This document shows positions 9,093 to 26,047 of a stretch of 32,000 bases of DNA, in pieces; the first letter of the stretch is position 1; the number at the start of each line of letters is the position of its first letter. The position numbers were made by a program, and so were the translations under genes. This stretch comes from Arthrobacter sp. ZGTC131. Its GTDB lineage: Bacteria; Actinomycetota; Actinomycetes; Actinomycetales; Micrococcaceae. The notes beneath the pieces were generated by a model. The model ran no database searches, was not told where the DNA came from, and saw only the letters and a list, made by a program, of their open reading frames with translations. The stretch spans positions 7,409-39,408 of the forward strand of contig NZ_PJIK01000013.1 in the NCBI RefSeq assembly GCF_002929275.1, in the 5' to 3' direction.

Positions 9093-9762
9093 TGTCCTGC
9101 TCCTTAGCTGATATGGGCTTGGTTGATGATGTTCCGGTCGGTTTAAGCGTGGGGTGAAGGGCGAGGACGAGCCGGTGGTTGCGGCCGCGCGGGCCGCCGC
9201 CCGCCGCGGCGTTCACGGTCCCGGCGCCGCCCGCGGCAGCACCGCCGTCGTGATACTTGTCCACCAGCCTCGTGACGGCGACGCCCAGCTCCTCGGCGAA
9301 AGCGGCACGGTCGGCGGCGGAGCGGAACGTGATCTCGCCGTCGATCGCGAATGTGGCGAGTTTCTGCTTGGCGGCGGCGGCACCGGTGATGAGCTTGCCC
9401 ACCTCCTGGACCGTCCGGCCCGCCAGCGCCAGGAGCCAGAATGCTGAAAACCGGTCCGAGAAGCGGTGCGGATCCGGCGCCACGGAGGCCAGCGCCACCG
9501 GCGAGATCAGGTAGGAAGCGGCCGTTGCCTGCACCACGCGCTCGGTGACGTTTCCCTTGCGGCGCTCCTCAACGAGCTCCACCAGCCCGTGCCGCTCCAG
9601 CGCCTTGAGGTGGTAGTTCACCTTCTGCCGCGGCAGGCCCACCCTGCCGGCGAGCTGCGTGGCCGACCAGGGCTCGGCCAGCTCGTGGAGGATCCGGGTG
9701 CGGATGGGATCCAGGGACGCCTCCGCGGCTGCCGGGTCCTCGATCACTTCGATGTCCAACAT
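9085..9762 (-). CDS. ArsR-family wHTH transcriptional regulator with a C-terminal extension
   Basis: HTH segment: IRTRILHELAEPWSATQLAGRVGLPRQKVNYHLKALERHGLVELV. The ATG at 9762 (MLDIEVIED) is preferred over the TTG at 9798, because that TTG is part of a TTGACA -35 element. Confidence 0.85.
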   Translation of the reverse strand: MLDIEVIEDPAAAEASLDPIRTRILHELAEPWSATQLAGRVGLPRQKVNYHLKALERHGLVELVEERRKGNVTERVVQATAASYLISPVALASVAPDPHRFSDRFSAFWLLALAGRTVQEVGKLITGAAAAKQKLATFAIDGEITFRSAADRAAFAEELGVAVTRLVDKYHDGGAAAGGAGTVNAAAGGGPRGRNHRLVLALHPTLKPTGTSSTKPISAKEQDND

Positions 9763-9819
9763 GCTTCCAGTGTGCCTACCGACAATTTTATTTGTCAAGA
9801 ACTTTTTTGTCGTCGGTAG
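9763..9819 (-). promoter_or_regulatory. arsR promoter/operator in an AT-rich patch
   Basis: Minus strand reads TTGACA (9798-9793), 18 nt, CACACT (9774-9769), 6 nt, then ATG, a leaderless geometry. Plus strand carries GACAA (9781-9785), TTGTC (9792-9796) and TTGTC (9807-9811). An outer imperfect inverted repeat is ctaccgacaa / ttgtcgtcggtag. Confidence 0.3.
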
Positions 9820-9919: not shown

Positions 9920-10903
9920 GTGATGCAATCCCCCCTCCCCGTGCGCGACGGCGTGAACGCCACCCGCCTGCGCCTCCCGGACGAGGGCCCCTGGACCACC
10001 GCGATGGACTACATGATGCACCGCTGGGGGCACATCGACCCGCAGGGCATCGAGGACCGGTTCGACGCCGGCGAGATCGTGGGCGAGGGCGGCATCCCCC
10101 TGGACCGGCGCACCAGGCTCGAGGACCACACCTTCATCTGGTACTACCGCACGCTCCCGCCGGAGACCCGCCTGCCCGTGGAGCTGAACATCCTGCACCA
10201 GGACGATCACATCCTGGTGGTGGACAAGCCGCACTTCCTGCCCACAACCCCGGGCGGCACGTACATCCAGGAATCGGCGCTGGTGCGGCTCCGGAACCAG
10301 CTGAACCTCCCGGATCTCATACCGATGCACCGGCTGGACCGCATGACCGCCGGCATCCTCCTCCTCTCCACCAACCCGGAAACTCGAGGCAGGTACCAGG
10401 TGCTCTTCGAGAAGCGCCTGGTGCAGAAAGAGTACGAGTGCGTCGCCGCCGCCCGGCCCGCTGCCGGTCACGCCGCCGTCGACTTCCCCGTGGTGGTCCG
10501 CAACCGGATGACCAAGTCCCGCAGCTACCTGCTCGCCGAGGTGATCGACGGCGAGCCCAATGCGGAGACCCGCATCGACCTGATCAGGACGTTCGAGGCC
10601 GGAACTTCCGACGGCGGAGCTTCCGACGGCGGTCCGGCCGCCGCCGCGTCACCCGCTTCGGGTCCGCGCGGGCTGTACCGCCTCGAGCCGCATTCCGGCA
10701 AGACGCACCAGCTCAGGGTGCACATGGCCTCGCTGGGCCTGGGCATCCTGCACGACGCGTTCTACCCGGACCTGCTGGACAAGGCCCCGGACGACTACAC
10801 CAAGCCGCTCCAGCTGCTGGCCCGCGGCATCCGGTTTGTCGACCCCATCACCAAGGAGCCCGTGGAGTACCGCAGCCGGCTTGAGCTGAGCGAAGTCCGC
10901 TGA
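9920..10903 (+). CDS. RluA-family pseudouridine synthase
   Basis: Catalytic motif HRLDRMTAGILLLS and ILHQDDHILVVDKP are present. It also contains an in-frame 15-bp tandem duplication (10604-10633, GTSDGGASDGG). Confidence 0.9.
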   Translation: MMQSPLPVRDGVNATRLRLPDEGPWTTAMDYMMHRWGHIDPQGIEDRFDAGEIVGEGGIPLDRRTRLEDHTFIWYYRTLPPETRLPVELNILHQDDHILVVDKPHFLPTTPGGTYIQESALVRLRNQLNLPDLIPMHRLDRMTAGILLLSTNPETRGRYQVLFEKRLVQKEYECVAAARPAAGHAAVDFPVVVRNRMTKSRSYLLAEVIDGEPNAETRIDLIRTFEAGTSDGGASDGGPAAAASPASGPRGLYRLEPHSGKTHQLRVHMASLGLGILHDAFYPDLLDKAPDDYTKPLQLLARGIRFVDPITKEPVEYRSRLELSEVR

Positions 10904-12816: not shown

Positions 12817-13146
12817 ATGCACGAACTCTCCATCACGCAGGGCCTTGTGGACGCCGTTCTGGACCGTACAGGCGAACGGACGGTAACGGCGGTCAACCTC
12901 CGAGTCGGTGCACTCTCCGGCGTATTGCCCGACGCCATGCGCTTTTGCTTCGACGTGGTCTCCGCAGGCACGCCCCTGGCCGGGGCCCGGCTGTGGATCG
13001 ACGAGCCGCAGGGGCTGGCCCGGTGCCGGACCTGCCAGGACGAATTCGAGTTGCCCGACCTGATCCTGCTTTGCCAATGCGGAAGTGCGGACGTCGAAGT
13101 TCTCCGTGGCCGCGAACTCATGCTGATGTCGGTGGAGGTGGCGTAG
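12817..13146 (+). CDS. hypA: Hydrogenase nickel-insertion metallochaperone HypA (109 aa)
   Basis: MHELSI N-terminus (the MHE Ni site) and a zinc site CRTC...CQCG are present. An SD (AGGAAGGGG) lies upstream. The upstream part of track ORF 12487-13146 is not HypA-like. Confidence 0.9.
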   Translation: MHELSITQGLVDAVLDRTGERTVTAVNLRVGALSGVLPDAMRFCFDVVSAGTPLAGARLWIDEPQGLARCRTCQDEFELPDLILLCQCGSADVEVLRGRELMLMSVEVA

Positions 13147-13149
13147 GAG

Positions 13150-14034
13150 ATGTGTACAACGTGCGGTTGCGGTGATGAGTCCGGCACCCGGGTTTCGAGC
13201 CTTGAGGGAACTCACTACATGCCGGAGCATGAGCAGCTGCACGTCCACGCCGTTAACCACAGCCACCAGCACCCGCATGACCACGAGCACCCGCACGACC
13301 ACGGTCCGGGCCATCACCATCAGTCCCCGCAGACGGAAACCATCTCACTGGAACAGAACCTGCTCGCCAAGAATGACCTGCTGGCGGCTCGGAACCGCGG
13401 CTGGCTCGCCGGCCGCGGTGTCCGGGCCTTCAACGTGATGAGTTCGCCCGGTGCCGGCAAGACCACCCTCCTGGTCCGCACCCTGGCGGATCTCGGCGAG
13501 CGCCTCCGCGCCGGCGTCATCGAGGGGGACCAAGAGACATCCCTGGATGCGGACCGCATCCGCGCGGTGGGCCGGCCCGTCATCCAGATCAACACCGGTG
13601 CCGGCTGCCATCTCGACGCCGACATGCTCCGGCGCGGGCTCGACGCCCTGGACCCGGAAACCGGTTCCACAGTCTTTATAGAAAACGTGGGCAACCTCGT
13701 CTGCCCCGCGCTGTTTGACCTTGGCGAAACAGCCAAGGTGGTGGTCGTTTCAGTGACGGAAGGTGATGACAAACCGCAGAAATACCCGCACATGTTCATG
13801 GCAGCCGACCTGGTGATCGTCAACAAGTCGGACCTGCTCCCCTATGTCGATTTCGACGTCGACGAGTGCCTGCGCCGCATCCGGCAGGTCAATCCGCGAG
13901 CCGATTTCGTGACAGTTTCGGCCACAACAGGCGAAGGTCTCGCCGCCTGGTATGACTGGCTCGACGGCATCACTTCCCGCTCAGACACATCCCGGTCAGA
14001 CACCTTGACTGATTCGCTGACAGACGCCCACTGA
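13150..14034 (+). CDS. hypB: Hydrogenase nickel-incorporation GTPase HypB with a His-rich Ni-storage region
   Basis: N-terminal MCTTCGC; His-rich stretch HVHAVNHSHQHPHDHEHPHDHGPGHHHQ; P-loop SSPGAGKTT; NKSD motif. The C-terminal tail has a 15-bp tandem repeat (13975-14004, SRSDTSRSDT). Confidence 0.95.
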   Translation: MCTTCGCGDESGTRVSSLEGTHYMPEHEQLHVHAVNHSHQHPHDHEHPHDHGPGHHHQSPQTETISLEQNLLAKNDLLAARNRGWLAGRGVRAFNVMSSPGAGKTTLLVRTLADLGERLRAGVIEGDQETSLDADRIRAVGRPVIQINTGAGCHLDADMLRRGLDALDPETGSTVFIENVGNLVCPALFDLGETAKVVVVSVTEGDDKPQKYPHMFMAADLVIVNKSDLLPYVDFDVDECLRRIRQVNPRADFVTVSATTGEGLAAWYDWLDGITSRSDTSRSDTLTDSLTDAH

Positions 14035-14065: not shown

Positions 14066-15124
14066 ATGCCTACTGAAACATCCCTCAAGGCCGAAGAAGC
14101 CCTCATCCACGTGCTGTGGATTAACGCAGGACTCAGTTGCGACGGCGATTCGGTCGCCCTGACGGCGGCCACGCAGCCCAGCGTCGAGGAGATAGCGCTG
14201 GGCGCGCTGCCCGGCCTGCCCCGGATCGCCATGCACTGGCCCCTGATCGATTTCGAGTGCGGTCCCCAGGAAGGGGCCGACGACTTCCTGGAGTGGTTCC
14301 GCAAGGCGGACCGCGGGGAGCTGGAGCCGTTCGTCCTGGTGGTCGAGGGCTCCATCCCGAACGAAAAACTCCACGAGCCGGGCGGCTACTGGTGCGGGTT
14401 CGGCAACGACCTCGAGACCGGCCAGCCGGTGACCACGAGTGAGTGGCTGGACCGCCTGGCGCCAAAAGCCACCGCGATCATCGCCGCCGGCACCTGCGCA
14501 ACGTACGGCGGCATCCACGCCATGGCGGGAAATCCGACCGGTGCCATGGGCGTCCCGGACTACCTCGGGTATGGCTGGAAGTCCAAGGCGGGCATCCCCA
14601 TTGTGTGCGTCCCCGGGTGCCCCATCCAGCCGGACAACCTCTCCGAAACCATGACCTACCTGCTGTACCAGGCCACCGGCCAGGCCCCGATGATTCCGCT
14701 GGATGACAACCTGCGGCCCACCTGGCTGTTCGGCAAGACCGTCCATGAAGGCTGTGACCGGGCGGGCTACTACGAGCAGGGTGACTTCGCCACGGAGTAC
14801 GGCTCTCCCAAGTGCATCGTCAAGCTCGGCTGCTGGGGCCCCGTGGTCAAGTGCAATGTGCCCAAGCGCGGCTGGATGAACGGCATCGGCGGCTGCCCGA
14901 ACGTCGGAGGCATCTGCATCGGCTGCACCATGCCGGGCTTCCCGGACAAGTTCATGCCCTTCATGGATGAGCCGCCCGGCGGCAAGCTTTCCACGGGCTC
15001 CATCCGCCCCTATGGCTCCGCCATCAGGGCCCTTCGGGGCATCACCACCCACACCCTGGACCAGGAGCCAAAGTGGCGCCGGCCCGGACGCGAGCTCCTT
15101 ACCGGCGCCCAGCGCACCTGGTAA
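14066..15124 (+). CDS. hhyS: [NiFe]-hydrogenase small subunit, group 1h/5 (no Tat signal)
   Basis: It lies immediately upstream of the large subunit. Cys-rich FeS-ligand pattern: LSCDGDS, GTCATYGG, CVPGCP, KCNVP, GGCPNVGGICIGC. The N-terminus lacks an RRxFxK motif. Confidence 0.95.
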   Translation: MPTETSLKAEEALIHVLWINAGLSCDGDSVALTAATQPSVEEIALGALPGLPRIAMHWPLIDFECGPQEGADDFLEWFRKADRGELEPFVLVVEGSIPNEKLHEPGGYWCGFGNDLETGQPVTTSEWLDRLAPKATAIIAAGTCATYGGIHAMAGNPTGAMGVPDYLGYGWKSKAGIPIVCVPGCPIQPDNLSETMTYLLYQATGQAPMIPLDDNLRPTWLFGKTVHEGCDRAGYYEQGDFATEYGSPKCIVKLGCWGPVVKCNVPKRGWMNGIGGCPNVGGICIGCTMPGFPDKFMPFMDEPPGGKLSTGSIRPYGSAIRALRGITTHTLDQEPKWRRPGRELLTGAQRTW

Positions 15125-15152
15125 CCCCCCACTTCCAGACAGGCGAAGCACA

Positions 15153-16946
15153 ATGACCTCCACGATTCCAATGAATTCCGGGAGCGGAACGGGCAACAAC
15201 AACCTGGTGGAGATGAACTGGGACCCCATCACGAGGATCGTCGGCAGCCTCGGCATCTACACCAAGATCGATTTCGAGAACAACCAGGTGGTGGAGTGCA
15301 AGAGCACGTCCTCGATCTTCCGCGGCTATTCCATCTTCATGAAGGGCAAGGACCCGCGGGACGCCCACTTCATCACCAGCCGCATCTGCGGAATCTGCGG
15401 CGACAACCACGCCACCTGCTCCTGCTACACGCAAAACATGGCGTACGGCGTGAAGCCGCCGAACCTGGGCGAGTGGATTGTGAACCTCGGCGAAGCCGCC
15501 GAGTACATGTTCGACCACAACATCTTCCAGGAAAACCTCGTCGGTGTGGACTACTGCGAAAAGATGGTGTCCGAAACCAACCCCGGCGTCCTGGCCAAGG
15601 CGGAAAACACCCGGGCTCCCCATGAAGGCGACCACGGCTACCGCACGATCGCGGACATCATGCGCTCGCTGAACCCGTTCACCGGGGAGTTCTACCGCGA
15701 GGCGCTGCAGGTCAGCCGCCTCACCCGCGAGATGTTCTGCCTGATGGAAGGACGCCACGTCCACCCGTCCACGCTGTACCCGGGCGGCGTGGGTACGGTC
15801 GCCACCATCCAGCTGATGACGGACTACATCACCCGCCTCATGCGGTACGTCGAGTTCATGAAAAAGGTCGTTCCCATGCACGACGACCTGTTCGACTTCT
15901 TCTACGAAGCGCTGCCGGGCTACGAGCAGGTGGGCCTGCGCCGCACGCTGCTGGGCTGCTGGGGGTCGCTCCAGGACCCGGACTACTGCAACTTCGAGTA
16001 CAAGGACATGACCGACTGGGGCCGGAAGATGTTTGTCACGCCGGGCGTCGTGGTGGACGGCAAACTCGTCACCACGGACCTGGTGCGGATCAACTTGGGC
16101 ATCCGGATCATGCTCGGCTCCTCCTATTACGAGGACTGGGAAGACCAGGAAATGTTCGTCACCCACGATCCGCTGGGCAATCCCGTGGACCGCCGCCATC
16201 CCTGGAACCAGCACACCAACCCCAGGCCGCAGAAGCGGGACCTCTCGGAGAAGTACAGCTGGGTCATGTCCCCCCGCTGGTTCGATGGCCAGGACAACCT
16301 TGCGCTGGACACCGGCGGCGGCCCGCTGGCCCGGCTCTGGGCCACGGCGCTCGCCGGCCTCGTGGACATCGGCTACATCAAGGCCACGGGGAGGAGCGTC
16401 CAGATCAACCTGCCCAAGACGGCGCTGAAGGGACCGGTGTCCTTCGAGTGGAACATCCCGCAGTGGAGCAACACCCTGGAGCGGAACCGGGCCCGCACGT
16501 ACTTCCAGGCCTACGCGGCCGCGGCGGCGCTGCACTTCGCGGAAAAGGCACTGGAGGAGATTCGCGCCGGCCGCACCAAGACCTGGGAAACCTTCGAGGT
16601 TCCCGAGGAGGGCATCGGTTGCGGGTTCACGGAAGCCGTGCGGGGCGTGCTGTCCCACCACATGGTGATCCGCGACGGCAAGATCGCCAACTACCACCCC
16701 TACCCGCCCACCCCGTGGAACGCCAGCCCGACGGACTCCGCCGGCGTTGCCGGACCGTACGAGGACGCCGTGCAGGGGCAGCCGATTTTTGAGGAGAATG
16801 ACCGCGAGCACTTCAAAGGCATCGACATCATGCGCACCGTCCGCAGCTTTGACCCTTGCCTCCCCTGCGGTGTTCACATGTATCTGGGCAACGGCCAGAC
16901 GCTGGAGAAGCTGCACTCCCCGACCCAGACGCTGACCGGCGAGTAA
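15153..16946 (+). CDS. hhyL: [NiFe]-hydrogenase large subunit, group 1h/5 (597 aa)
   Basis: L1 motif TSRICGICGDNH and L2 motif SFDPCLPCGVH. The start is set at MTSTIPMNSG, because the upstream 62 codons of the track ORF overlap hhyS in another frame. Confidence 0.95.
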   Translation: MTSTIPMNSGSGTGNNNLVEMNWDPITRIVGSLGIYTKIDFENNQVVECKSTSSIFRGYSIFMKGKDPRDAHFITSRICGICGDNHATCSCYTQNMAYGVKPPNLGEWIVNLGEAAEYMFDHNIFQENLVGVDYCEKMVSETNPGVLAKAENTRAPHEGDHGYRTIADIMRSLNPFTGEFYREALQVSRLTREMFCLMEGRHVHPSTLYPGGVGTVATIQLMTDYITRLMRYVEFMKKVVPMHDDLFDFFYEALPGYEQVGLRRTLLGCWGSLQDPDYCNFEYKDMTDWGRKMFVTPGVVVDGKLVTTDLVRINLGIRIMLGSSYYEDWEDQEMFVTHDPLGNPVDRRHPWNQHTNPRPQKRDLSEKYSWVMSPRWFDGQDNLALDTGGGPLARLWATALAGLVDIGYIKATGRSVQINLPKTALKGPVSFEWNIPQWSNTLERNRARTYFQAYAAAAALHFAEKALEEIRAGRTKTWETFEVPEEGIGCGFTEAVRGVLSHHMVIRDGKIANYHPYPPTPWNASPTDSAGVAGPYEDAVQGQPIFEENDREHFKGIDIMRTVRSFDPCLPCGVHMYLGNGQTLEKLHSPTQTLTGE

Positions 16947-16951
16947 CAGCA

Positions 16952-17977
16952 ATGGAAGGCGGTGACCGGCCGCTGCAGACCGGCGACCGGATCGGCACTC
17001 TCCTCGACGCCCTCGGGGCAGGCGGGGCGGTGGCCCGCGGCCGGGCCGAGGACCTCGTCCGGCAGGTCACGGACCTTTACGGCGCCGGCCTGCAGCGGAT
17101 CCTGGAGATCCTGCATGACCAGGGCAAGCTCGACGACGCCACGCTGGCGGCGCTGACCGCCGATGACCTCGTGTCCGGCCTGCTGGTGGTGCACGGGCTG
17201 CATCCGCTCTCCGTCGAGGCGCGCGTCGTCGCTGCGCTGGACAGCGTCCGTCCCTATCTGGGATCTCACGGTGGCAACGTCGAGCTGATGGACATCAGCG
17301 CGGAGGGCGTGGTCCGGCTGAAGCTGCTCGGCACCTGCCAGGGGTGCCCGTCGTCGTCCGTCACACTGAAGTTCGCCGTCGAGGAGGCGATTGAATCGGC
17401 GGCACCGGAGGTAACCGCGATCGAAGTCGTCGAAGAGGAAAAACAGGCCGCCACTCCTGCCCTGATCCCGGTGGACGCGCTGCTGGTCCGGGTCAATCAT
17501 CCTGCGGAGGGGGCGGCGCCCGCAGATGCCTGGCACGAAATGAGCGGCGGCACCTGGGAGCCGGTGCCGGAGATCGCCGGGCTCGAACCTGGCGACGTCG
17601 CCGGTTTCCTCGTCGCCGGCTACGCGGTGCTGGCCTGCCGGACCGGGCAGGACGTCTATGCCTACCGCGACTACTGCCCGCGCTGCACCGGCTCCATGGC
17701 GGGCGCCACACTGCAGCGGGCACTCGCGGCCCCGGCCGGCGGAGGCCTGCTGTGCTGCCCCACCTGCCGCGGCCACTTCGACGTGCGGCAAGCCGGGTCC
17801 TGCCTTGAAGACAGGAACCTCCACCTGGATCCGCTGCCACTCCTGGTCCGCGGTGGCGTGATGTCCGTGGCCGTGCCCCTGCCGCAGGACGGGGCGGCTG
17901 ACACGAACGGGGCCGCCGACATGAACAGGACGGCTGACGCGAACCGGGCGGCCGACATGAACAGGGCCCTGACATGA
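16952..17977 (+). CDS. hhyE: HhyE-like putative Fe-S protein: NifU/Nfu-like domain plus Rieske-like C-terminal domain (341 aa)
   Basis: Nfu-type segment GGNVELMDISAEGVVRLKLLGTCQGCPSS. The C-terminal segment YRDYCPRC...CCPTCRGHF sits in a Rieske-like context. The start lies 5 nt after the hhyL stop. Confidence 0.85.
   Translation: MEGGDRPLQTGDRIGTLLDALGAGGAVARGRAEDLVRQVTDLYGAGLQRILEILHDQGKLDDATLAALTADDLVSGLLVVHGLHPLSVEARVVAALDSVRPYLGSHGGNVELMDISAEGVVRLKLLGTCQGCPSSSVTLKFAVEEAIESAAPEVTAIEVVEEEKQAATPALIPVDALLVRVNHPAEGAAPADAWHEMSGGTWEPVPEIAGLEPGDVAGFLVAGYAVLACRTGQDVYAYRDYCPRCTGSMAGATLQRALAAPAGGGLLCCPTCRGHFDVRQAGSCLEDRNLHLDPLPLLVRGGVMSVAVPLPQDGAADTNGAADMNRTADANRAADMNRALT
17894..17965 (+). repeat. 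18-bp x4 in-frame tandem repeat forming the HhyE C-terminal tail
   Basis: gcggctgacacgaacggg / gccgccgacatgaacagg / acggctgacgcgaaccgg / gcggccgacatgaacagg, encoding AADTNG AADMNR TADANR AADMNR. Confidence 0.85.
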
Positions 17978-18669
17978 ACCCAGCGCCCGGAACCGGTGAC
18001 GCCGGGACCGGCCTGCCGGTAGCCCTGCTCCGCAGGATCGCCACCAGCCGGCCGGCGCCGGTGGCCGGCGAGCGCTGCGAGATGTGCGGCGAACCCATTG
18101 CGGACCAGCACCAGCACGTGGTGGACCTGGAGAGCCACGCCATGATGTGCACCTGCCGCCCCTGCTACCTCCTCTTCACCGACAGCGCAGCCCACCTCCG
18201 GTACCGCGCCGTGCCGGACCGGTACCTGTCCTTTCCGGACTTTGAACTGGGTCCCGGCCAGTGGGATGAGCTGGAGATTCCCGTCGGCTTGGCGTTCTTC
18301 TTCCGCAGCTCCAAGCTCGACCGGACGGTCGCCTTCTACCCCGGACCCGCCGGCGCGACGGAGTCGGAACTGCCCCTGGAGGCGTGGGGCGCCGTGCTGG
18401 CCCGCAACCCCGCCCTGGGAATGGCGGTGCCGGACACCGAGGCGCTGCTGATCCGCGGCCCGGGGCCGGACCGGGCCCAGGCCGACTGCCACCTCGTCCC
18501 GGTGGACGCCTGCTACGAACTCGTGGGGCAGCTGCGCCGCCTCTGGCGGGGGTTCGACGGCGGGCAGGAGGCCCGCGAACAGCTCGCCGCGTTCTTCGAC
18601 CGCGTCCGCAGCCGCAGCAAACCGGTTCGCGAGGCTAACCGCAACACCCAGGCGGGTGGCCCGCCGTGA
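17974..18669 (+). CDS. Hydrogenase-associated conserved protein of unknown function (231 aa) with a CxxC...CxCxxC cluster
   Basis: ATGA overlap with the hhyE stop. Contains CEMCGEPIADQHQHVVDLESHAMMCTCRPC. I believe this corresponds to a DUF family seen next to actinobacterial group 1h hydrogenases, but cannot verify it here. Confidence 0.85.
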   Translation: MNPAPGTGDAGTGLPVALLRRIATSRPAPVAGERCEMCGEPIADQHQHVVDLESHAMMCTCRPCYLLFTDSAAHLRYRAVPDRYLSFPDFELGPGQWDELEIPVGLAFFFRSSKLDRTVAFYPGPAGATESELPLEAWGAVLARNPALGMAVPDTEALLIRGPGPDRAQADCHLVPVDACYELVGQLRRLWRGFDGGQEAREQLAAFFDRVRSRSKPVREANRNTQAGGPP

Positions 18670-19322
18670 CTGAGCTGACCTTCGCCGTCGTCGATATCCG
18701 GCCGGAGCCCTACGCAGCGGCCCCGCAGCTGACCGCCCGGCTGCGGGTGACCGAGGCCACCGGAGCCGTGGTTCACGCCATCGCCCTGCGCTGCCAGGTC
18801 CGCATTCTCCCCCAGCGCCGCGGCTACGCGGCCGAGGAGGAAACCGGACTGCTGGACCTCTTCGGCGACCGCGGCCGCTGGCCCACGACCCTCAAGTCGT
18901 TTCTCTGGATGCAGTGCAGCACCATGGTGCAGGGATTCACCGGGAGCACCGAAGTTGACCTGCCGCTGCCCTGCACCTTTGACTTCGACGTGGCGGCAGC
19001 CAAATACCTGCATGCCCTGCGCGACGGCGAGATCCCGCTGGAGCTGCTGTTCTCCGGCACGGTCTTCACCAAGGGCGAGGCGGGCTTCGGCGTGGAGCAG
19101 GTGCCCTGGGACCTCGAGGCCACCTACCGGCTTCCGGTGGCGGCCTGGCACCGGCTGATGGACCAGTACTTCCCCAATGCGGGCTGGATACGCCTGGACA
19201 GGGACGTCCTCGCGGCGTTGTCGCACTATAAATCGGCACGGGGCCTGACGTCCTGGGAAGCTGCCGTGGAGGCCCTGCTGGCCAAAGCGGCTGCCGGCGT
19301 GAGCGGAGACCAGCTCCGATGA
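18666..19322 (+). CDS. Hydrogenase-associated conserved protein of unknown function (218 aa)
   Basis: GTGA overlap with the upstream stop. Normal globular composition with strong GC3 bias, and no motif I recognise. Confidence 0.8.
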   Translation: MTELTFAVVDIRPEPYAAAPQLTARLRVTEATGAVVHAIALRCQVRILPQRRGYAAEEETGLLDLFGDRGRWPTTLKSFLWMQCSTMVQGFTGSTEVDLPLPCTFDFDVAAAKYLHALRDGEIPLELLFSGTVFTKGEAGFGVEQVPWDLEATYRLPVAAWHRLMDQYFPNAGWIRLDRDVLAALSHYKSARGLTSWEAAVEALLAKAAAGVSGDQLR

Positions 19323-20791
19323 ACATGAGCCTGAGCCTCGCCCGCGCCGTCGCTGATGCCGTCCTCTACGAGGGCTATCTGCTGTACCCGTACCGCGCAT
19401 CGTCGCAGAAGAACCAGGCACGCTGGCAGTTCGGCATCCTCGGACCGCCCGGTGCCGCGGATGCCGGCGCGGGCGAAGAACCGGCCATGTTCGCCGACTG
19501 CCTGCTGGCCCCGGGGCCGCAGGCCGAGGTGGAGGTCCATCTGCGCTTCCTGCAGCTTCAGTCGCGCAGCGCTGTAGAAGCGGACGACGGCGGCGGGTTC
19601 AGCCCGGTGGCTGAGCTCACCATCGGCGCCACTCGCTGGCTGAGCTGGGACGAGGCGGTCGGGGAGGAAGTCACCCTGGGACCGTTTTCCGTGGCACAGC
19701 TCAGGGAAGGCGGGCAGGTCCTGCCGGTGGCGGTTCCCGCGGGACTGGACGTTGAGGAACTCACTGACGGCAGCGGCCGCGTGGCGGGCCGGCTGGTGCG
19801 CCGGCGCCAGGCCCTTCGCGGGGAAGTCCGGCTGGCCGTTGCCGCCCTGACGGACGGGCTGCTGCGGCTGAGAGTGTCTGCGGCCAACACCGCCCCGGCG
19901 GTTGCGGTCGCCGACGGCAGGCCGGGTGCCATCGCGGCGTCCTTCATCGGCGCCCACCTGTTGCTGAGCCTGCGGGACGGCGATTTCGTCTCACTGCTTG
20001 AACCGCCCGACTGGGCCCAGGCGGCCGCGCGGTCCTGCTCCCAGCACCGCTGCTGGCCCGTACTGGCGGGCCCCGAGGGACAAACGGACGTGCTGCTGGT
20101 CTCGCCCATCATTCTGTACGACCACCCCGCTGTGGCGCCGGAGAGTTCGGTGGCGCTGTACGACTCCACGGAAATCGACGAGATCCTCACCCTGCGCGTG
20201 CTCACGCTGACCGACGAGGAAAAGGCGGAAGCACGCGCCACCGACCCGCGCGCGGCGGCGATAATCGACCGCTGCGAAGCGATGTCCGCGGAAGAACTGC
20301 AGCAGCTTCACGGGATCCTGCGCAACCCCCATGCTCTCGTGGGCCCGCCGGAGTTGGACTGGCCTACGGCCATCACTTCCGACGGCGGCGGGTCAGCGGA
20401 CACCGCTACCGTCGCTTCAGCGGGCGGCAGCGTCGAGGACCGGCCCTGGTGGGATCCCGAAGCGGATGCCAGCGTCCAGCCGGACACGGACGCCGTCCTC
20501 ATTAACGGCGTCCCGGTGGCGCGCGGCAGCCGCGTCCGCGTGAATCCCAGCCGGCGGGCTGATGCGCAGGATCTGTTTTTCGCAGGTCAGACCGGACGCG
20601 TCACGAGCGTCCATTTCGACGTCGACGGCAGCACCCATGTTGGGCTGGTGCTCGAACAGGACCCGGCCGCGGACCTCCACGAGGGCTACGGCAGGTCCTT
20701 CTACTACGCGCCCGAGGAACTGGAACCGCTCGAACCGATGCGGCCAGCAGCCAGTCCCGGGCTTCGGGAGGGAAAGGAAGATCCCCAATGA
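19319..20791 (+). CDS. Hydrogenase-associated conserved protein of unknown function (490 aa)
   Basis: ATGA overlap with the upstream stop. The N-terminus is LYEGYLLYPYRASSQKNQARWQFGILGP. A low-complexity linker precedes a C-terminal beta-rich domain. No catalytic motif recognised. Confidence 0.8.
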   Translation: MNMSLSLARAVADAVLYEGYLLYPYRASSQKNQARWQFGILGPPGAADAGAGEEPAMFADCLLAPGPQAEVEVHLRFLQLQSRSAVEADDGGGFSPVAELTIGATRWLSWDEAVGEEVTLGPFSVAQLREGGQVLPVAVPAGLDVEELTDGSGRVAGRLVRRRQALRGEVRLAVAALTDGLLRLRVSAANTAPAVAVADGRPGAIAASFIGAHLLLSLRDGDFVSLLEPPDWAQAAARSCSQHRCWPVLAGPEGQTDVLLVSPIILYDHPAVAPESSVALYDSTEIDEILTLRVLTLTDEEKAEARATDPRAAAIIDRCEAMSAEELQQLHGILRNPHALVGPPELDWPTAITSDGGGSADTATVASAGGSVEDRPWWDPEADASVQPDTDAVLINGVPVARGSRVRVNPSRRADAQDLFFAGQTGRVTSVHFDVDGSTHVGLVLEQDPAADLHEGYGRSFYYAPEELEPLEPMRPAASPGLREGKEDPQ

Positions 20792-20907
20792 AAACTATAG
20801 GAACGGCGACCGTTACGGTGATGGCGGCGATGGCGCTCTGGGCTGTCTACACCGGGATCCGTGCGGTCCCGGATATCCGGCGCTACCTGAAGATCAGGAA
20901 GATGTGA
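20788..20907 (+). CDS. 39-aa single-TM peptide (MKTIGTATVTVMAAMALWAVYTGIRAVPDIRRYLKIRKM), below the ORF-track length cutoff
   Basis: Its ATG overlaps the upstream stop (ATGA) and its stop overlaps the protease GTG (GTGA). A strong purine-rich SD (GGGAGGGAAAGGAAG, 20767-20781) lies upstream. Third codon positions are almost all G/C after codon 5. The sequence has a hydrophobic core plus a basic tail. Confidence 0.6.
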   Translation: MKTIGTATVTVMAAMALWAVYTGIRAVPDIRRYLKIRKM

Positions 20908-21461
20908 CCCCCGGCGACCGGCCCCGTCCAGCTTCCTCCGGGCCTTCCCCCACGGAATTCCCGGGGAACGCAGTCCGCGTCCTCGTGGCGGGCGTGGGCA
21001 ACCTGTTCCTGCGCGACGACGGGTTCGGCCCGGAGGTCGCAGGGCGGCTGGCGGCGGAGGCAGTCCCGGCGGGGCGCGACGTCCGGGTTGTGGACTACGG
21101 TATCCGCGGCATGCATCTGGCCTACGACCTCCTCGGCGGTGTGGATGTCTTGGTGATCGTGGATGCCGTGCCGCCGGACGCACCAGGGAAAGCGGTCCCC
21201 GGAAGTCTCCGGGTGATGCGTGTCCGCAGCGAGGATCTGCACGGCGCCGCGTCCCTGGATCCCCACGGCATGGACCCGGCGGCGGTGCTGGGCCGGCTGC
21301 GCTCGCTGGGCGGCGAACTGCCCCTCACGTACGTGGTGGGCTGCGTGCCTGCCGACGTGACCGAAGGCATCGGTCTCTCCGCCCCGGTAGCCGCCGCAGT
21401 CCCGGAGGCGATCGCCGTCGTCGGCTCACTCTTGGAACAACACGTCCCCATCACCCCTTAA
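20904..21461 (+). CDS. hupD: [NiFe]-hydrogenase maturation endopeptidase (HupD/HybD family, 185 aa)
   Basis: VRVLVAGVGNLFLRDDGFG, VVDYG and IVDAV motifs are present. GTG 20904 is the only in-frame start upstream of the motif. The first 114 codons of track ORF 20562-21461 are non-protein-like. Confidence 0.85.
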   Translation: MTPGDRPRPASSGPSPTEFPGNAVRVLVAGVGNLFLRDDGFGPEVAGRLAAEAVPAGRDVRVVDYGIRGMHLAYDLLGGVDVLVIVDAVPPDAPGKAVPGSLRVMRVRSEDLHGAASLDPHGMDPAAVLGRLRSLGGELPLTYVVGCVPADVTEGIGLSAPVAAAVPEAIAVVGSLLEQHVPITP

Positions 21462-21474
21462 GGCGGTACCGTCC

Positions 21475-21744
21475 ATGTGCCTCGGAATACCCGGCCAGGT
21501 CATCGAGCTCGTCGAGGGCTACGGCGGCCAGCTCGCCCTCGTCGATGTGGCGGGAGTGGCCCGGAAAATCAACATCGGCCTGCTCGACGACGGCCCGCCG
21601 GAGCCCGGCAGCTGGGTCCTCATCCACATGGGTTTCGCCCTGGAGCGGGTGGACGCAGCAGGGGCCGAGCAGGCTATGGGCGGCCTGGAACTGATGGGCC
21701 GTGCGAGAGAACCTGAAAGCGGGGCCGCCCAGGAGTCCCGCTGA
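21475..21744 (+). CDS. hypC: Hydrogenase assembly chaperone HypC/HupF
   Basis: MCLGIPGQV N-terminus (Cys2) and the GSWVLIHMGFA motif. Confidence 0.92.
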   Translation: MCLGIPGQVIELVEGYGGQLALVDVAGVARKINIGLLDDGPPEPGSWVLIHMGFALERVDAAGAEQAMGGLELMGRAREPESGAAQESR

Positions 21745-21779: not shown

Positions 21780-22118
21780 ATGCCATCTACTGACCAGCCC
21801 CGTCCAGACGAACCGACGACGGGCACAGCCCCGGGCACGGCGCGTACCTTCGGCAGCGAACCGCCCCTGAAAGAGCCGGCACACCCCGGCCGGGACGAAA
21901 CCCCCGAGGACGCTGCTCAGGCGCCGCCGGACGTTGGCGAGAGCACCACGCGCCGGGGCGAGGACGTCATCAAGCAGGAAGGCAAGGAGCCCGGACGCGA
22001 GGACACCGGAACCGATGCCGGGCCTGTTGAACGCCCCACGGGTGAATCGTCGCCCCGCGATGCCTCCGGCATCCAAACACCCGAGGATCCGGACACTGCG
22101 GCTCCGCAATCGCCGTAG
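21780..22118 (+). CDS. Hypothetical disordered Pro/Glu/Asp/Thr-rich protein (112 aa)
   Basis: A good SD (GAGGAGAG) lies 5 nt upstream of the ATG. There is no hydrophobic core and no recognisable domain. Coding status is supported mainly by the SD and operon position. Confidence 0.5.
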   Translation: MPSTDQPRPDEPTTGTAPGTARTFGSEPPLKEPAHPGRDETPEDAAQAPPDVGESTTRRGEDVIKQEGKEPGREDTGTDAGPVERPTGESSPRDASGIQTPEDPDTAAPQSP

Positions 22119-22129
22119 CGCCTGCCGAA

Positions 22130-22903
22130 TCAGCGTCCAAGCGCGATTGCCGCGCCACGGTGTTCAACGCCGCTGTTGGCAATCTTGAGGTGGCGCGCCG
22201 TAAAGTGCTTGAGCTGCTGCACCTGCTGCGGTGTGAGGCGGTCGCACACCCAGTCCCAGTGGAGGGACACGACGTCGCCCACGGCCAGGTCCGCCACGAA
22301 GCCCGTTCCGTTGACGGCGTACTTGGCCGATTCCGCCACGGGCTCGCCGACCCCCAGCGACGTGCCGTCCCACACCAGCGGCCGGGAAAGCACCACGGCC
22401 TCATCGCCCGTGATGGCCAACACCTGGCCCCACCGGATCCGGCACCGGTCCAGCACGTTCAACGCCGTGGCGTGCCGGCGTTCGTCGCGGAGCAGGCCCA
22501 GCCAAGGATAGATCTCGAAGACATGGAAACTGTGGTGCGGGACCCCTCCCGCCAGCACTCCCTCCACCAGATGCGGGAACTGCCGGCCGGTGCGGGCCCG
22601 GAACCGGTCCTCCATGGAGTTGCCGATGTTGGTGATGCCCACGGAGTCCAGCAGGCTGTTCCCTACCCAGTACGCCTCGACCACCCGGGCATCAAGAGGA
22701 TCGGAGATGCCGTGCGAGCCGGCGATGAGTTCCAGATAGGGCCATGCTCCGGCAAAGCCCCGGGCCAGCTCGCGGAGTCCCTGATCCGTGACGCCGGACT
22801 GGCCGTAGTGGAGGAGGGCGTCGCTGTCCGGAGGCCCGCAGCTGCCGCGGGAATTCGGCGGATAGGCGTAGCGGACAAACAACTGGGCACCATCGATAAC
22901 CAT
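22130..22903 (-). CDS. Conserved protein of unknown function (about 257 aa) with a HypC-like C-terminal segment
   Basis: The N-terminus FVRYAYPPNSRGSCGP is one I associate with a DUF family found near hydrogenases (unverified). An AAGGTGG SD lies 7 nt before ATG 22903, and GTG 22906 is also possible. The C-terminal CRIRWGQVLAI...GDVVSLHWDWVCDRL resembles the HypC motifs. Confidence 0.8.
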   Translation of the reverse strand: MVIDGAQLFVRYAYPPNSRGSCGPPDSDALLHYGQSGVTDQGLRELARGFAGAWPYLELIAGSHGISDPLDARVVEAYWVGNSLLDSVGITNIGNSMEDRFRARTGRQFPHLVEGVLAGGVPHHSFHVFEIYPWLGLLRDERRHATALNVLDRCRIRWGQVLAITGDEAVVLSRPLVWDGTSLGVGEPVAESAKYAVNGTGFVADLAVGDVVSLHWDWVCDRLTPQQVQQLKHFTARHLKIANSGVEHRGAAIALGR

Positions 22904-22986
22904 CACGTGGCCACCTTCTGCAAGCGTCCTCTGAAAGTAGCACCGGGGTGTGTCAGCGACAAGGGCGGTACCGCCGGACGAATGCG

Positions 22987-23015
22987 TTGACAGCCCTGCC
23001 CTTGAAGCGGATGCT
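22987..23015 (+). promoter_or_regulatory. Candidate promoter of the ABC importer operon
   Basis: TTGACA (22987-22992), 17 nt, GATGCT (23010-23015). A GGAGG SD at 23033-23037 precedes ATG 23046. Confidence 0.3.
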
Positions 23016-23045
23016 GTGAAGAACCGACGCGCAGGAGGTCAGACT

Positions 23046-24194
23046 ATGGGAGTCTCCAATCTGAACCGGCGCACTGCCCTCCACGTGCTGGTGGCGGGAG
23101 GTTCCGCGGCCTTCCTCGCCGGATGCGGCGCATCCGGCTCCGCACCGCCGTCGTCCCCGTCCGGCAGCAGCAGCCCCGGGACGCAAAGCATCCGTATCAC
23201 CGACCAGCGCGGAAAAACGGTCACCTTCACCCGGCCCGTCACCCGGGTGGTGACCATTCCCATGCCGGCGGCGTCGCTGCTTGTCGCCGTCGACAGGACC
23301 GCAGACCATCTCGCCGCCATGCACAATGTGTCGTGGGTGGCCATGCGCGACGGCATCATGGGCACCATGTTTCCCCGGGCGCTGAGCGTCCCGCATGAAA
23401 TAGCCACCCAGGACTTCACGGCGAACGTTGAGAGCGTGCGCGCCTTAAATCCCGACGTCGTGATCCAGTGGTCGGACGAGCAACTGATTGAACCGCTGGA
23501 AAAGGCAGGCCTTCAGGTGATCGGCCTGAAAAACACGGGCCGGCAGGAGGACGTGGACGCCTGGGTGACCATGTTCGCCGCCATGCTCGGCAAGCCCGCG
23601 CGGGCAACGGAGATCAAGGCGCGAAGTGACTCGGAACTGGCGGCGGTCAAGGCCCAGGCGGCCGGCCGCAGTGCCGATGGTCCCAGCATTCTCTACTTCA
23701 ACCGCTTTACCGGCGGGCTCAAGGTTGCCGCAACGAACAGCTATAACGACTTCTACATCAAGCTAATAGGCGGTACCAACCCTGCCACCGGCAAGGATCC
23801 GCTGCCGGGACCGGGGATGGTGGGGCTCGACGTGGAGCAGGTCCTGAGCTGGGACCCCGAGGTCATCCTGCTGGGCAATTTCGATTTCGCCATGCCCCAG
23901 GATCTCTACTCGGATCCTGTATGGCAGAACGTATCCGCGGTGCGGTCCCACCGGGTGTACAAGGTGCCGCTCGGCGGATACCGCTGGGATCCGCCCGGGC
24001 AGGAGTCGCCGCTCATGTGGCACTGGCTGGCCGATATCGCCTTCCCCCAGCAGCAGTCGCCCCTGCGCGGCAAGGTCACTGAGTATTTCCGGTTCCTCTA
24101 CAACCACGAGCTCACGGCAGTCGAGCTGGACAAGATTCTCTGGACCGCAGCGAACGGCGGCTCCGCTCATTATCAACAATTCAATGCTGGATGA
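23046..24194 (+). CDS. ABC importer substrate-binding lipoprotein, FecB/BtuF/CeuE (cluster A, metal-chelate) type
   Basis: The signal has an RR n-region and lipobox (NRRTALHVLVAGGSAAFLAGC). The body resembles periplasmic metal-chelate binding proteins. It sits upstream of FecCD-type permease and ATPase genes. Confidence 0.85.
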   Translation: MGVSNLNRRTALHVLVAGGSAAFLAGCGASGSAPPSSPSGSSSPGTQSIRITDQRGKTVTFTRPVTRVVTIPMPAASLLVAVDRTADHLAAMHNVSWVAMRDGIMGTMFPRALSVPHEIATQDFTANVESVRALNPDVVIQWSDEQLIEPLEKAGLQVIGLKNTGRQEDVDAWVTMFAAMLGKPARATEIKARSDSELAAVKAQAAGRSADGPSILYFNRFTGGLKVAATNSYNDFYIKLIGGTNPATGKDPLPGPGMVGLDVEQVLSWDPEVILLGNFDFAMPQDLYSDPVWQNVSAVRSHRVYKVPLGGYRWDPPGQESPLMWHWLADIAFPQQQSPLRGKVTEYFRFLYNHELTAVELDKILWTAANGGSAHYQQFNAG

Positions 24195-25293
24195 GGCCAG
24201 GACCCCGGGCTTGAAAACCCCCCGCGCGCGGGCCGGGCGGAAGGCGTCCGTCCCGCGGCCGCGCGACCGGCGGCGCGAACCCGCCATCTTCGTTCCCATC
24301 GGGCTCACTGCCGTGTTGCTGATTGCCGCTGCACTCGTGGCGCTGGCGGTGGGCCGGTACAGCGTGCCGCTCTGGCATGTTGTGCAGATCCTGACGGCCC
24401 AGCTCATCCCCTTCCCCGTCGACGCCAGCGCCACCGAACAGAACGTGGTGCTGCTGGTCCGCCTGCCCCGGATCCTGCTCGCCCTGCTGGTGGGCGGCGG
24501 CCTGGCTATCGGCGGCGCCGCCCTTCAGGCCGTCTTCCGCAATCCGCTGGTCAGCCCGGACATCATCGGGGTTTCCGCGGGTGCGTCCTTCGGCGGAGCG
24601 CTGGCCCTGCTGCTCGGCCTTGGCTCGGTCCTCCTGGTCACTGGCTCGTTTGTGTTTGGCCTGGTGGCCCTCGGCACCCTGTTCCTGATCACCTCGGGCC
24701 GCTCGGGAACGCCCATGCTCATGATCGTGCTCGGCGGAGTGGTGACGGGCTCGTTCTTCTCAGCCCTGGTCGCGCTGGTCACCTATCTCGCGGACCCCAA
24801 CACCACGCTGCCGGCCATCGTCTTCTGGCTGCTCGGCAGCGTGTCCACGGCCACCTTCACCAAAGTGATCGTCGCGCTCATCCCAATCCTCGGCGGCGCC
24901 GTGGTGCTGCTGGCCCTGCGCTGGCGCATCAATGTCCTCTCCCTGGGCGACGACGACGCCGCCGCACTCGGCGTGCAGCCCCGCCCGCTGCGCTGGGTGG
25001 TGCTCGTCGCGGTGGCGCTGATCGTGGCCGGCGCGGTCGCGGTCAGCGGCGCAGTCAGCTGGGTGGGGCTCGTGGTCCCGCATCTGGCCCGGATGTGGGT
25101 GGGGCCGGAGCACCGGGTGCTGCTGCCGGTGTCCTTCCTGCTCGGCGGAGCCTACATAGTGCTGGTGGACACAGTTGCCCGCACCGCCACCGCTGGCGAG
25201 ATTCCGTTGGGCGTCCTCACCGCACTGATCGGCGCCCCGGTATTCTTCCTGCTCCTGCGGCGGAACCGGGAGAGGATCTGGGAAAATGCTTGA
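24184..25293 (+). CDS. FecCD-family ABC importer permease
   Basis: Polytopic, with the family segment GGAALQAVFRNPLVSPDIIGVSAGASFG and C-terminal IPLGVLTALIGAPVFFLLLRR. It overlaps the SBP stop by 11 nt. Confidence 0.9.
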   Translation: MLDEARTPGLKTPRARAGRKASVPRPRDRRREPAIFVPIGLTAVLLIAAALVALAVGRYSVPLWHVVQILTAQLIPFPVDASATEQNVVLLVRLPRILLALLVGGGLAIGGAALQAVFRNPLVSPDIIGVSAGASFGGALALLLGLGSVLLVTGSFVFGLVALGTLFLITSGRSGTPMLMIVLGGVVTGSFFSALVALVTYLADPNTTLPAIVFWLLGSVSTATFTKVIVALIPILGGAVVLLALRWRINVLSLGDDDAAALGVQPRPLRWVVLVAVALIVAGAVAVSGAVSWVGLVVPHLARMWVGPEHRVLLPVSFLLGGAYIVLVDTVARTATAGEIPLGVLTALIGAPVFFLLLRRNRERIWENA

Positions 25294-26047
25294 GCTCGAC
25301 GGCGTGGGCTTCGGCTACACCTTGGAGAACTGGGTCTTCCGCGGCGTCAGCTTCCGCGTTCCCCCGGGCACCGCCACTGCCGTGCTGGGGCCCAACGGCA
25401 GCGGCAAGACAACGCTGGTACGCTGCGCTGCCGGGCTGCTGGCGCCCGGGGAAGGGACTATCCGGCGGACCGAAAGCGCGGGGTACGTGCCTCAGGCCCA
25501 CGGCAGTGCCTTCGCCTACAGCGCGGTGGACATGGTCCTGATGGGGCGCGCGCGGCACGTGGGTGTCTTCCGGACACCGGGATCGGCGGACCGCGCCGCT
25601 GCCGCGGACGCCATGGACAGGGTAGGTGCCGCAGGGCTGCGAGACCGGCTTTTCCCCACGCTGAGCGGCGGCGAGCAGCAGCTGATCCTGATCGCCCGGG
25701 CCATCGCGGCCGGATCCCCTGTCCTGGTGCTGGACGAGCCCGCCACGGGCCTCGACCTGAAAAACCAGGTGCGGGTCCTGACGCTCCTGCGCGAACTGAT
25801 GGCGGACGGAATGGCCCTGCTGCTGAGCACCCACCAGCCCGACCACGCCCTGCACCTTGCCGACCGCGTGGTCCTGCTGGGCCGGACCGGCGCGCGGACC
25901 GGCCCGGCCGCGGAACTGCTCACCGAAACCGAGCTTTCCGGCCTCTACGGCGTACCGGTCAGCACGGTCTCCTATTCCGACGACGGCACGCGCCGGCGGA
26001 CCATCGTGGTGCACTACGGCGGCCCAAAGGCGGAGCACTCCGGTTGA
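25286..26047 (+). CDS. ABC importer ATPase (FecE/BtuD-like)
   Basis: Walker A GPNGSGKTT, signature LSGGEQQ, Walker B LVLDEPATGLD, H-loop STHQP. It overlaps the permease stop by 8 nt. Confidence 0.92.
   Translation: MLELDGVGFGYTLENWVFRGVSFRVPPGTATAVLGPNGSGKTTLVRCAAGLLAPGEGTIRRTESAGYVPQAHGSAFAYSAVDMVLMGRARHVGVFRTPGSADRAAAADAMDRVGAAGLRDRLFPTLSGGEQQLILIARAIAAGSPVLVLDEPATGLDLKNQVRVLTLLRELMADGMALLLSTHQPDHALHLADRVVLLGRTGARTGPAAELLTETELSGLYGVPVSTVSYSDDGTRRRTIVVHYGGPKAEHSG

Follow-up and report, generated by a model that had tools for sequence, protein, structure and literature searches.

Positions 16,952 to 21,461 of a 32,000-nucleotide (nt) stretch of the Arthrobacter sp. ZGTC131 genome (assembly GCF_002929275.1, contig NZ_PJIK01000013.1, positions 7,409 to 39,408 of the forward strand; hereafter the window) hold six genes directly downstream of hhyL, the large-subunit gene of a group 1h (Hhy, actinobacterial-type) [NiFe]-hydrogenase. 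They are hhyE, three genes for a DUF5947 protein, a DUF6084 protein and a 490-residue protein, p490 (the trio), the gene of a 39-residue DUF6893 micro-protein, and the maturation endopeptidase gene hupD. Our analysis suggests, with a probability that we put at roughly one half, that this module is the dedicated assembly set of the cytosolic, O2-insensitive hydrogenase. DUF5947, DUF6084 and p490 would be synthesized in a coupled fashion and form one hetero-oligomer, in which DUF5947 would provide a Cys/His metal site and which would act at the HupD endopeptidase step. There it might attend to the HhyL precursor at about the time when nickel is inserted and the C-terminus is cleaved, or help to join HhyL and HhyS in air. 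HhyE, by virtue of its Nfu-type domain, would deliver Fe-S clusters to the enzyme as a factor separate from this complex, the single-helix DUF6893 peptide might tether HupD or the complex to the membrane via its basic cytoplasmic tail, and no module protein would stay in the mature hydrogenase as a subunit. As group 1h hydrogenases are a principal route of atmospheric H2 consumption by soil bacteria, the question on which these genes bear is an important one.

The hydrogenase itself is readily assigned to group 1h. The small-subunit gene hhyS (14066..15124, +; Pfam NiFe_hyd_SSU_C, 3.4e-24, and Oxidored_q6) is followed by hhyL (15153..16946, +), whose product carries the L1 motif TSRICGICGDNH and the L2 motif SFDPCLPCGVH of this group as defined in PMC5364354. 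The best PDB match of HhyL is HofG of 5AA5 at 1069 bits, with a runner-up at 161 bits. The 5AA5 chain end aligns with HhyL residue 575, the CGVH histidine, beyond which 22 amino acids remain in HhyL; since the solved chain stops at this histidine, the tail is taken to be the part removed by the endopeptidase. The N-terminus of HhyS (MPTETSLKAEE...) contains no RRxF motif and no twin-arginine (Tat) signal, and no cytochrome b family was found among the gene products of the window. The hhyL frame is open for 186 nt upstream of 15153 (14967-15152) and there overlaps the end of hhyS, and an automatic caller starting at 14967 could add a spurious Pro/Ser-rich N-terminus of 62 residues. This start, which would imply a 158-nt overlap with hhyS, was rejected in favor of ATG 15153 because the resulting spacer of 28 nt falls within the range of 8-126 nt of most hhyS-hhyL spacers in related loci.

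To place the module in a wider context, 161 loci were compared. Genomes scanned with an alignment of diverse p490 sequences yielded more than 570 confirmed matches, the best 80 of which were used (mainly Arthrobacter, Mycobacterium, Rhodococcus, Nocardia and Streptomyces), and a metagenome scan anchored on the p490 homolog of Cupriavidus necator yielded 554, again with the best 80 used; C. necator pHG1 completed the set, and the low-scoring tail of the p490 family was not sampled. hhyL is present in 119 of these loci, and the remaining 42 end at most 824 nt from the first module gene. In all 119 testable loci the large subunit adjoining the module shares 77% identity or more with a 1h reference. 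In PLSDB, a 1h-type HhyL and p490 occur in one and the same set of 13 plasmid records; p490 is missing from two Rhizobium records whose [NiFe] enzyme is of another type. In the sampled loci, the module is exclusively associated with the group 1h hydrogenase. An earlier reading of this DNA from its letters and open reading frames (ORFs), the sequence-only reading, had named homologs common outside hydrogenase loci as evidence against its proposal, and none was encountered in this sample.

The comparison also shows which genes travel together. The common order is hhyS-hhyL-hhyE-trio; a second one, trio-hupD-hhyS-hhyL-hypB-hypA-hhyE-hypF, occurs on six metagenome contigs (L094, L102, L106, L110, L113 and L117) and may be present on a Streptantibioticus plasmid, as p490 there lies upstream of hhyL on that gene's strand. 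DUF5947-DUF6084-p490-hupD is contiguous in both orders, with p490 kept between DUF6084 and hupD in the 161 loci, and hhyE is the mobile gene, which goes to the hyp genes.

The sequence-only reading had described a 5-nt spacer between hhyL and hhyE, followed by five consecutive start/stop overlaps, and all coordinates were verified. The hhyL stop TAA occupies 16944-16946 and the ATG of hhyE begins at 16952. hhyE (16952..17977), the genes for DUF5947 (17974..18669), DUF6084 (18666..19322), p490 (19319..20791) and the DUF6893 peptide (20788..20907), and hupD (20904..21461), all on the plus strand, are joined by ATGA 17974-17977, GTGA 18666-18669, ATGA 19319-19322, ATGA 20788-20791 and GTGA 20904-20907. 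In a window of about 68-70% G+C, all six ORFs display a coding signature in the G+C content of third codon positions (GC3, 0.78-0.90), and all but p490 match a Pfam family. For DUF5947, DUF6084, p490 and the peptide, no alternative in-frame start lies upstream of conserved residues. p490 has a second ATG at 19325, two codons downstream and 2 nt past the DUF6084 stop, from which coupling would still be tight. In hupD the next in-frame start is at residue 28, inside the conserved VLVAGVGN strand; the possibility that GTG 20904 is a spurious hupD start was therefore rejected, as no other in-frame start precedes this strand.

One start-calling rule was then applied to the 80 actinobacterial loci, while the metagenome counts refer to loci outside the close actinobacterial set. 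A 4-nt overlap joins DUF5947 to DUF6084 in 66 of 77 and DUF6084 to p490 in 67 of 79 actinobacterial loci, and the same junctions overlap in 47 of 60 (mostly by 8 nt) and 60 of 74 metagenome loci, so that both couplings are conserved across phyla. hhyE and DUF5947 overlap by 4 nt in 45 of 75 actinobacterial loci and, with any overlap counted, in 10 of 46 metagenome loci. p490 and hupD, between which the peptide intervenes in the actinobacterial loci, overlap in 64 of 70 metagenome loci. At the junctions flanking the peptide, 4-nt overlaps were found in 15 of 40 (p490-peptide) and 7 of 37 (peptide-hupD) actinobacterial loci. The control junctions in this set gave 1 of 63 for hhyS-hhyL, 4 of 72 for hhyL-hhyE and 2 of 74 for hupD-hypC. 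Because conservation drops at these last two junctions, the uninterrupted series of five overlaps is in part peculiar to the Arthrobacter lineage, and the conserved coupled unit, as judged from these junctions, would be DUF5947-DUF6084-p490, joined to hupD in most lineages. Pairing with the anti-Shine-Dalgarno sequence is at background (mean -3.7 kcal/mol) for hhyE (-3.1), DUF5947 (-3.4) and hupD (-4.3), and DUF6084 (-6.0), p490 (-7.2) and the peptide (-10.0 kcal/mol) have a Shine-Dalgarno sequence of their own. The features of a coupled operon, i.e. start/stop overlaps, a conserved arrangement and some starts that lack their own Shine-Dalgarno sequence, are all present, and at the sequence level DUF5947, DUF6084 and p490 have the arrangement of genes that are predicted to be translationally coupled. 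The fixed stoichiometry that the sequence-only reading had drawn from the five overlaps is not deducible from overlaps alone.

Overlaps of 4 nt are common in Actinobacteria, and it might be argued that those of the module reflect nothing but the operon compaction common in high-GC genomes, the proteins acting separately and forming no functional complex. The variation of the last two junctions among genera and the Shine-Dalgarno sequences preceding three of the six genes would agree with this. Yet the control junctions overlap in 1-5% of cases as against 60-87% for the module junctions of the same loci, the overlaps are retained where the proteins share only 35-50% identity, and co-evolution, as outlined below, is specific to the trio. 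We therefore regard mere compaction as very doubtful.

Co-evolution was assessed by a mirror-tree approach on 38 phylogenetically related loci with all eight proteins at normal length, using partial correlations of pairwise distance matrices from which the signal common to the other six families had been removed, and permutation p values. The members of the trio correlate with each other (DUF5947-p490, r 0.62; DUF5947-DUF6084, r 0.46; DUF6084-p490, r 0.37) in a range that includes the value of the positive control HhyS-HhyL (r 0.55), all with p <= 0.0005, and p490 also correlates with HupD (r 0.27, p 0.005). HhyE is correlated with HhyL (r 0.32, p 0.0015) and HypC (r 0.34, p 0.0025), but not with DUF5947 (r -0.06, p 0.75). 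Between the trio and HhyS or HhyL, partial r ranges from -0.14 to 0.07, a null result that is weak evidence because the two subunits vary little (mean distance 0.12-0.13). Co-evolution thus supports a complex of the trio, which probably exists, and sets HhyE apart, with the caveat that the sequences compared are related by descent. The proposal that all the products of the module form one complex can accordingly be upheld for the trio, given its cross-phylum coupling and a co-evolution like that of HhyS-HhyL, but not for the block from hhyE to hupD, as the second gene order places hhyE with hypB, hypA and hypF and HhyE does not co-vary with DUF5947. Degrees of divergence were compared as well: relative to C. 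necator, identity is 35-45% for the trio, 42% for HupD and 46% for HypC, compared to 67% for HhyS and 79% for HhyL. The trio diverges like maturation factors, and the enzyme is far more conserved.

We favor a maturation complex for several reasons. The trio is linked and coupled to the endopeptidase gene, whereas hhyE relocates to the hyp genes; it co-evolves internally and not with the enzyme; and its rates of divergence resemble those of HupD and HypC rather than those of HhyS and HhyL. Its families match no PDB chain, including 5AA5, the only solved 1h enzyme, which would be in line with proteins that are not part of the finished hydrogenase. Finally, the group 2a enzyme Huc sets a precedent, as the purified enzyme contains only HucS/L/M and its direct reduction of menaquinone takes place in the absence of HucE, the paralogue of HhyE (PMC10017518). 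The Nfu-type Fe-S carrier domain of HhyE and the invariant CxxC...HxH...CxCxxC motif of DUF5947, both described below, were also counted in favor of this reading.

A number of points weigh against it. Genomic linkage and co-evolution indicate partnership, not function. Foldseek and Pfam revealed no fold or profile similarity of the trio to a known hydrogenase chaperone, and the null result between trio and enzyme has the weakness mentioned above. Further points lead to a different view, in which the trio, with a redox-active DUF5947, and the peptide would hold mature Hhy at the membrane and relay electrons to menaquinone, thereby replacing a cytochrome b subunit. Hhy is confined to the membrane fraction, from which 5% cholate does not detach it, although the enzyme lacks a transmembrane segment and has no known anchor or electron acceptor (10.1101/769216). 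The peptide, for its part, is conserved and combines a single helix with a basic cytoplasmic tail, and the seven invariant Cys/His residues of the DUF5947 motif could hold a redox metal. PHG067 of C. necator has been proposed as electron acceptor of Hhy, and its Mycobacterium smegmatis homolog MSMEG_2717 is mentioned as a possible acceptor, according to PMC6883350. In Thermomicrobium roseum, hhaABC are located on the structural, not on the maturation operon (PMC6776052). On the other hand, DUF6084 and p490 are devoid of cofactor motifs, and families of ferredoxins, cytochromes or quinone sites were not among the matches. The trio and the peptide follow hupD and not hhyS or hhyL, and the trio neither co-evolves with the two subunits nor diverges as they do. 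In addition, Huc works without such a relay (PMC10017518). A function in electron transfer and membrane docking thus appears rather unlikely, and so, to a somewhat greater extent, does the combined proposal that DUF6893 is the missing anchor of Hhy, that the trio docks the enzyme and passes electrons to menaquinone, and that DUF5947 is a new carrier of a metal center. Of the two mechanisms offered by the sequence-only reading, comparative and literature evidence leads us to favor the assembly platform over the link to the quinone pool.

What the trio proteins might do individually was addressed at the level of families and structure. DUF5947 (231 residues; Pfam PF19372, 2.9e-74) reaches 249 bits against a cut-off of 25 over profile positions 1-176 of 177, and DUF6084 (218 residues; PF19562, 4.4e-98) reaches 327.5 bits, also against a cut-off of 25, over positions 1-210 of 213. 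p490 was matched by no Pfam or NCBIfam model, but is 35% identical to C. necator PHG069 over 480 columns (E 2e-80). It matches 3884 clusters at 50% identity, 1120 of them with E <= 1e-30, and the named family members among the matches listed are all 'hypothetical protein'. DUF5947 has 100% identity to the Arthrobacter sp. ZGTC131 protein, and other module proteins are 95-96% identical to Arthrobacter proteins. By hhalign, the three families are mutually unrelated; Pfam hits of the trio at E <= 10 were noise only, with no HyaE, HupH, HybE or rubredoxin family among them, and sequence and profile searches of the PDB matched no chain, 5AA5 included. The sequence-only reading had considered the proteins of 231, 218 and 490 residues to be without assigned function, and they do indeed receive DUF names or nothing from Pfam and NCBIfam and have no relative in the PDB.

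In DUF5947, the motif C35-x2-C38-x7-H46-x-H48-x10-C59-x-C61-R-x-C64 and C180 are invariant in alignments of 66 and 16 sequences, and all of C35, C38, H46, H48, C59, C61, R62, C64 and C180 are also found in C. necator; yet no ferredoxin, rubredoxin or cytochrome family of Pfam or NCBIfam was matched. An AlphaFold2 (AF2) model based on the 66-sequence alignment (predicted local distance difference test, pLDDT, 78.8; predicted template modeling score, pTM, 0.74) displays a CxxC knuckle, a hairpin and a helix that starts with CxxC. Because of this pattern of secondary structure, the model suggests a treble-clef zinc-type site, with a possible second His2Cys2 site. A Foldseek search of the PDB with this model gave no fold match (best E-value 0.17). 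The AF2 model of p490, based on 49 sequences, has a mean pLDDT of 66.5 and consists of a confident beta-rich core (33-249) and a small C-terminal beta domain; the latter matches the SH3-like PetP in Foldseek with a probability of 1.0, and the core has no PDB match. None of the full DUF5947 and p490 models was matched at E <= 0.001. The best-conserved segments of p490, 1-30 (YEGYLLYPYR) and 249-292 (SPIILYDHP...TEIDEIL), have a pLDDT below 50, and a conserved acidic segment is present. Such low confidence would be expected if these segments became ordered only on a partner. It has therefore to be considered that the trio is a stable complex which acts after assembly, in protection, repair or storage of Hhy during starvation in air or in the control of HupD. 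This would accommodate its co-evolution as a unit and not with the enzyme, its novel folds that bear no similarity to chaperones, and the function of Hhy as a persistence-phase enzyme. However, given the adjacency and coupling to hupD, such a role is less economical than maturation; we consider it distinctly improbable.

The peptide encoded at 20788..20907 (Pfam PF21833, DUF6893, 7.9e-12; 45.4 bits against a cut-off of 24.6) consists of one hydrophobic helix followed by the basic tail VPDIRRYLKIRKM-COOH, which is predicted by the positive-inside rule to be cytoplasmic. All 40 peptides recovered by tblastn have 39 residues and a hydropathy of at least 1.9 (Kyte-Doolittle, 17-residue window), and a hidden Markov model built from them places the peptide directly after p490 in about 79 of the 80 actinobacterial loci. 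The tail follows the consensus S-[IVL]-P-D-x-x-R-Y-[LIM]-K-[IM]-R-x-M (PDxxRYxKxRxM), then the stop codon. Many synonymous codons are in use for the invariant P, D, R, Y and R, a sign that selection acts at the protein level. Of the more distant loci, 54 reach far enough beyond hupD to be checked, and in 35 of them hupD is directly followed by an ORF that ends in this tail motif and is sometimes 65-100 residues long. On C. necator pHG1, a 33-residue ORF with the sequence MKGFLKYLVLPALVVALLANIKDIRRYIRIRSM and a strong Shine-Dalgarno sequence is located between the protease gene PHG070 and hypF (positions 9999-10100 of our record L081, corresponding to NC_005241.1 66753-66854, +) and is absent from the gene table. 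Where it was found, the peptide gene always adjoins hupD, either before or after it. A role as membrane anchor is plausible, and the strong membrane association of Hhy would support it; what counts against an anchor of the enzyme is that the peptide tracks hupD and not hhyS or hhyL. In C. necator, moreover, the enzyme is presumably soluble although the peptide gene is present.

At either end of the module, HhyE and HupD belong to known families. HupD matches TIGR00072 (3.4e-30; 105 bits against a cut-off of 47.45) and Pfam HycI. HhyE contains a NifU domain (Pfam 8.2e-22, 77.6 bits against a cut-off of 27; Nfu domains in the PDB, 1e-19), and its motifs CQGC, CPRC and CPTC are arranged as a NifU domain with one CxxC and a C-terminal domain with two, in agreement with the description in PMC6883350. 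A classification of HhyE as a Rieske [2Fe-2S] protein was rejected, as Rieske_2 (21.9 bits) remains below its cut-off of 27 and the ligands are CxxC pairs rather than CxH...CxxH. That HhyE is genetically required for H2 oxidation in M. smegmatis, as stated in the sequence-only reading, is confirmed by the literature, where deletion of hhyE abolished Hhy activity (PMC6883350).

The surrounding genes complete the picture of the hydrogenase locus. Upstream of hhyS are hypA (12817..13146, +; ATG 12817, MHELSITQ; Pfam HypA 1.6e-28), encoding the nickel metallochaperone, and hypB (13150..14034, +; Pfam cobW/HypB/UreG 1.1e-25), encoding the nickel-insertion GTPase, and hypC (21475..21744, +; Pfam HupF_HypC 4.8e-21) starts 13 nt past hupD. 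In Mycobacterium, Rhodococcus, Streptomyces and C. necator, hypD, hypE and hypF are found directly after hypC. They were not found in the window, and none of the eight Arthrobacter-type loci (L001-L008) has them at a distance of up to 10 kb from the module; in Arthrobacter they must thus be encoded at another place in the genome. After hypC, a candidate ORF of 112 residues (21780-22118, +; GC3 0.73) has no family match and was matched by tblastn in no more than 4 of 80 related loci, each of them from Arthrobacter. A gene for a DUF6390 protein (22130..22906, -; Pfam PF19927 2.8e-92) is convergent with the end of the hydrogenase operon in the window; the family occurs in 65 of 80 related actinobacterial loci, where its gene usually shares the strand of the hyp genes and lies 5-8 kb downstream. 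The DUF6390 protein is a further hydrogenase-linked protein without an assigned role, and it accompanies group 1h loci. Among the hyp genes of 28 of the 80 actinobacterial loci and of C. necator, a gene for a SIS-domain protein of the sugar-phosphate-binding type was observed (e.g. L025, L029 and L081 12939-13628). Further away lie an Lhr-type helicase gene with an Fpg/Nei-like glycosylase gene overlapping its end and an ArsR-type regulator gene (62-5978 and 9085-9798), and an iron-siderophore-type ATP-binding cassette (ABC) importer is encoded directly downstream of the hydrogenase locus (22950-26047); these flanking genes are without relation to the module. A scan for promoters and terminators between 11500 and 23500 yielded nothing that exceeded shuffled controls. 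Antisense ORFs of high GC3 (e.g. 20883-21425, -) were rejected as genes and are regarded as high-GC artefacts, because the family matches belong to the plus-strand frames.

As the literature already lists these genes as conserved hypotheticals, the module is not new, and its existence is known to specialists. PHG066-069 of C. necator H16 have been termed 'proteins of unknown function' (PMC4377017), the 'conserved hypothetical proteins hhaABC' are encoded on the hhyLS operon of T. roseum (PMC6776052), and 'conserved hypothetical proteins' have been described along with hhyE and hupD in Acidobacteria (PMC5900883). Together with the related loci, these reports bear out the view that group 1h loci carry conserved hypothetical genes. 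hhaABC are probably the same gene set, as are probably MSMEG_2717 and the genes downstream of it in M. smegmatis. A functional study of DUF5947, DUF6084, p490 or the peptide was not found in the literature searched, which included MSMEG_2714-2717 and PHG066-069. Three points occur in no paper searched: the trio-hupD core, the trio-specific co-evolution, and the hupD-adjacent micro-protein that is unannotated on pHG1. The module genes are obvious candidates for factors in assembly of the enzyme in air and in its link to the membrane and the quinone pool, group 1h enzymes having neither cytochrome b nor a transmembrane segment. Our analysis narrows the unit to be studied to the trio, HupD and the membrane peptide of 33-39 residues, instead of HhyE plus everything downstream, and pinpoints a candidate metal-binding motif as well as a peptide gene missing from the C. 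necator gene table.

The closest known system is that of C. necator H16, whose megaplasmid carries, in this order, hofK, hofG and the genes PHG066-PHG070 for a NifU protein, DUF5947, DUF6084, the p490 homolog and the protease. Families, order and overlaps (1, 4, 8, 4 and 4 nt) agree with those of the module, even at an identity of 35% for the p490 homolog. In contrast, the NifU protein of C. necator, with 192 residues compared to 341 for HhyE, has no C-terminal CxxC domain, the DUF6893-like peptide gene is located after rather than before hupD, and hypF, hypC, hypD and hypE follow directly, whereas hypD, hypE and hypF are not present in the window. In the C. necator record (L081 3208-4263), hofK is labelled 'hydrogenase expression protein HypE', an apparent misannotation, as hofK is 67% identical to HhyS. 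For the proposed role in assembly, the accessory sets of O2-tolerant membrane-bound hydrogenases serve as a working analogy. HoxL/O/Q/R/T/V, HupG-K and HyaE/F are encoded by hydrogenase-specific genes between the structural and the hyp genes and are needed for assembly in air. Sequence or profile similarity to the module was not found, and the enzymes that they serve are exported by the Tat pathway, for which HhyS lacks a signal. For DUF5947, a comparison can be drawn to HypA, a small maturation protein with a Cys4 zinc site and a separate His-containing nickel site. The number of ligands is comparable, with five invariant Cys, HxH and C180 in DUF5947, but homology is not detectable, and a genuine HypA is encoded in the window. 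For the peptide, HucM comes to mind, the scaffold and membrane stalk of Huc, by which a cytosolic enzyme of high affinity is attached to the membrane (PMC10017518). Both are small hydrogenase-specific proteins; HucM, however, is a stoichiometric subunit of 189 residues that forms a coiled-coil tube, while the DUF6893 peptide, to which it has no homology, has 33-39 residues in most lineages, comprises one hydrophobic helix and is encoded as a neighbor of the protease gene.

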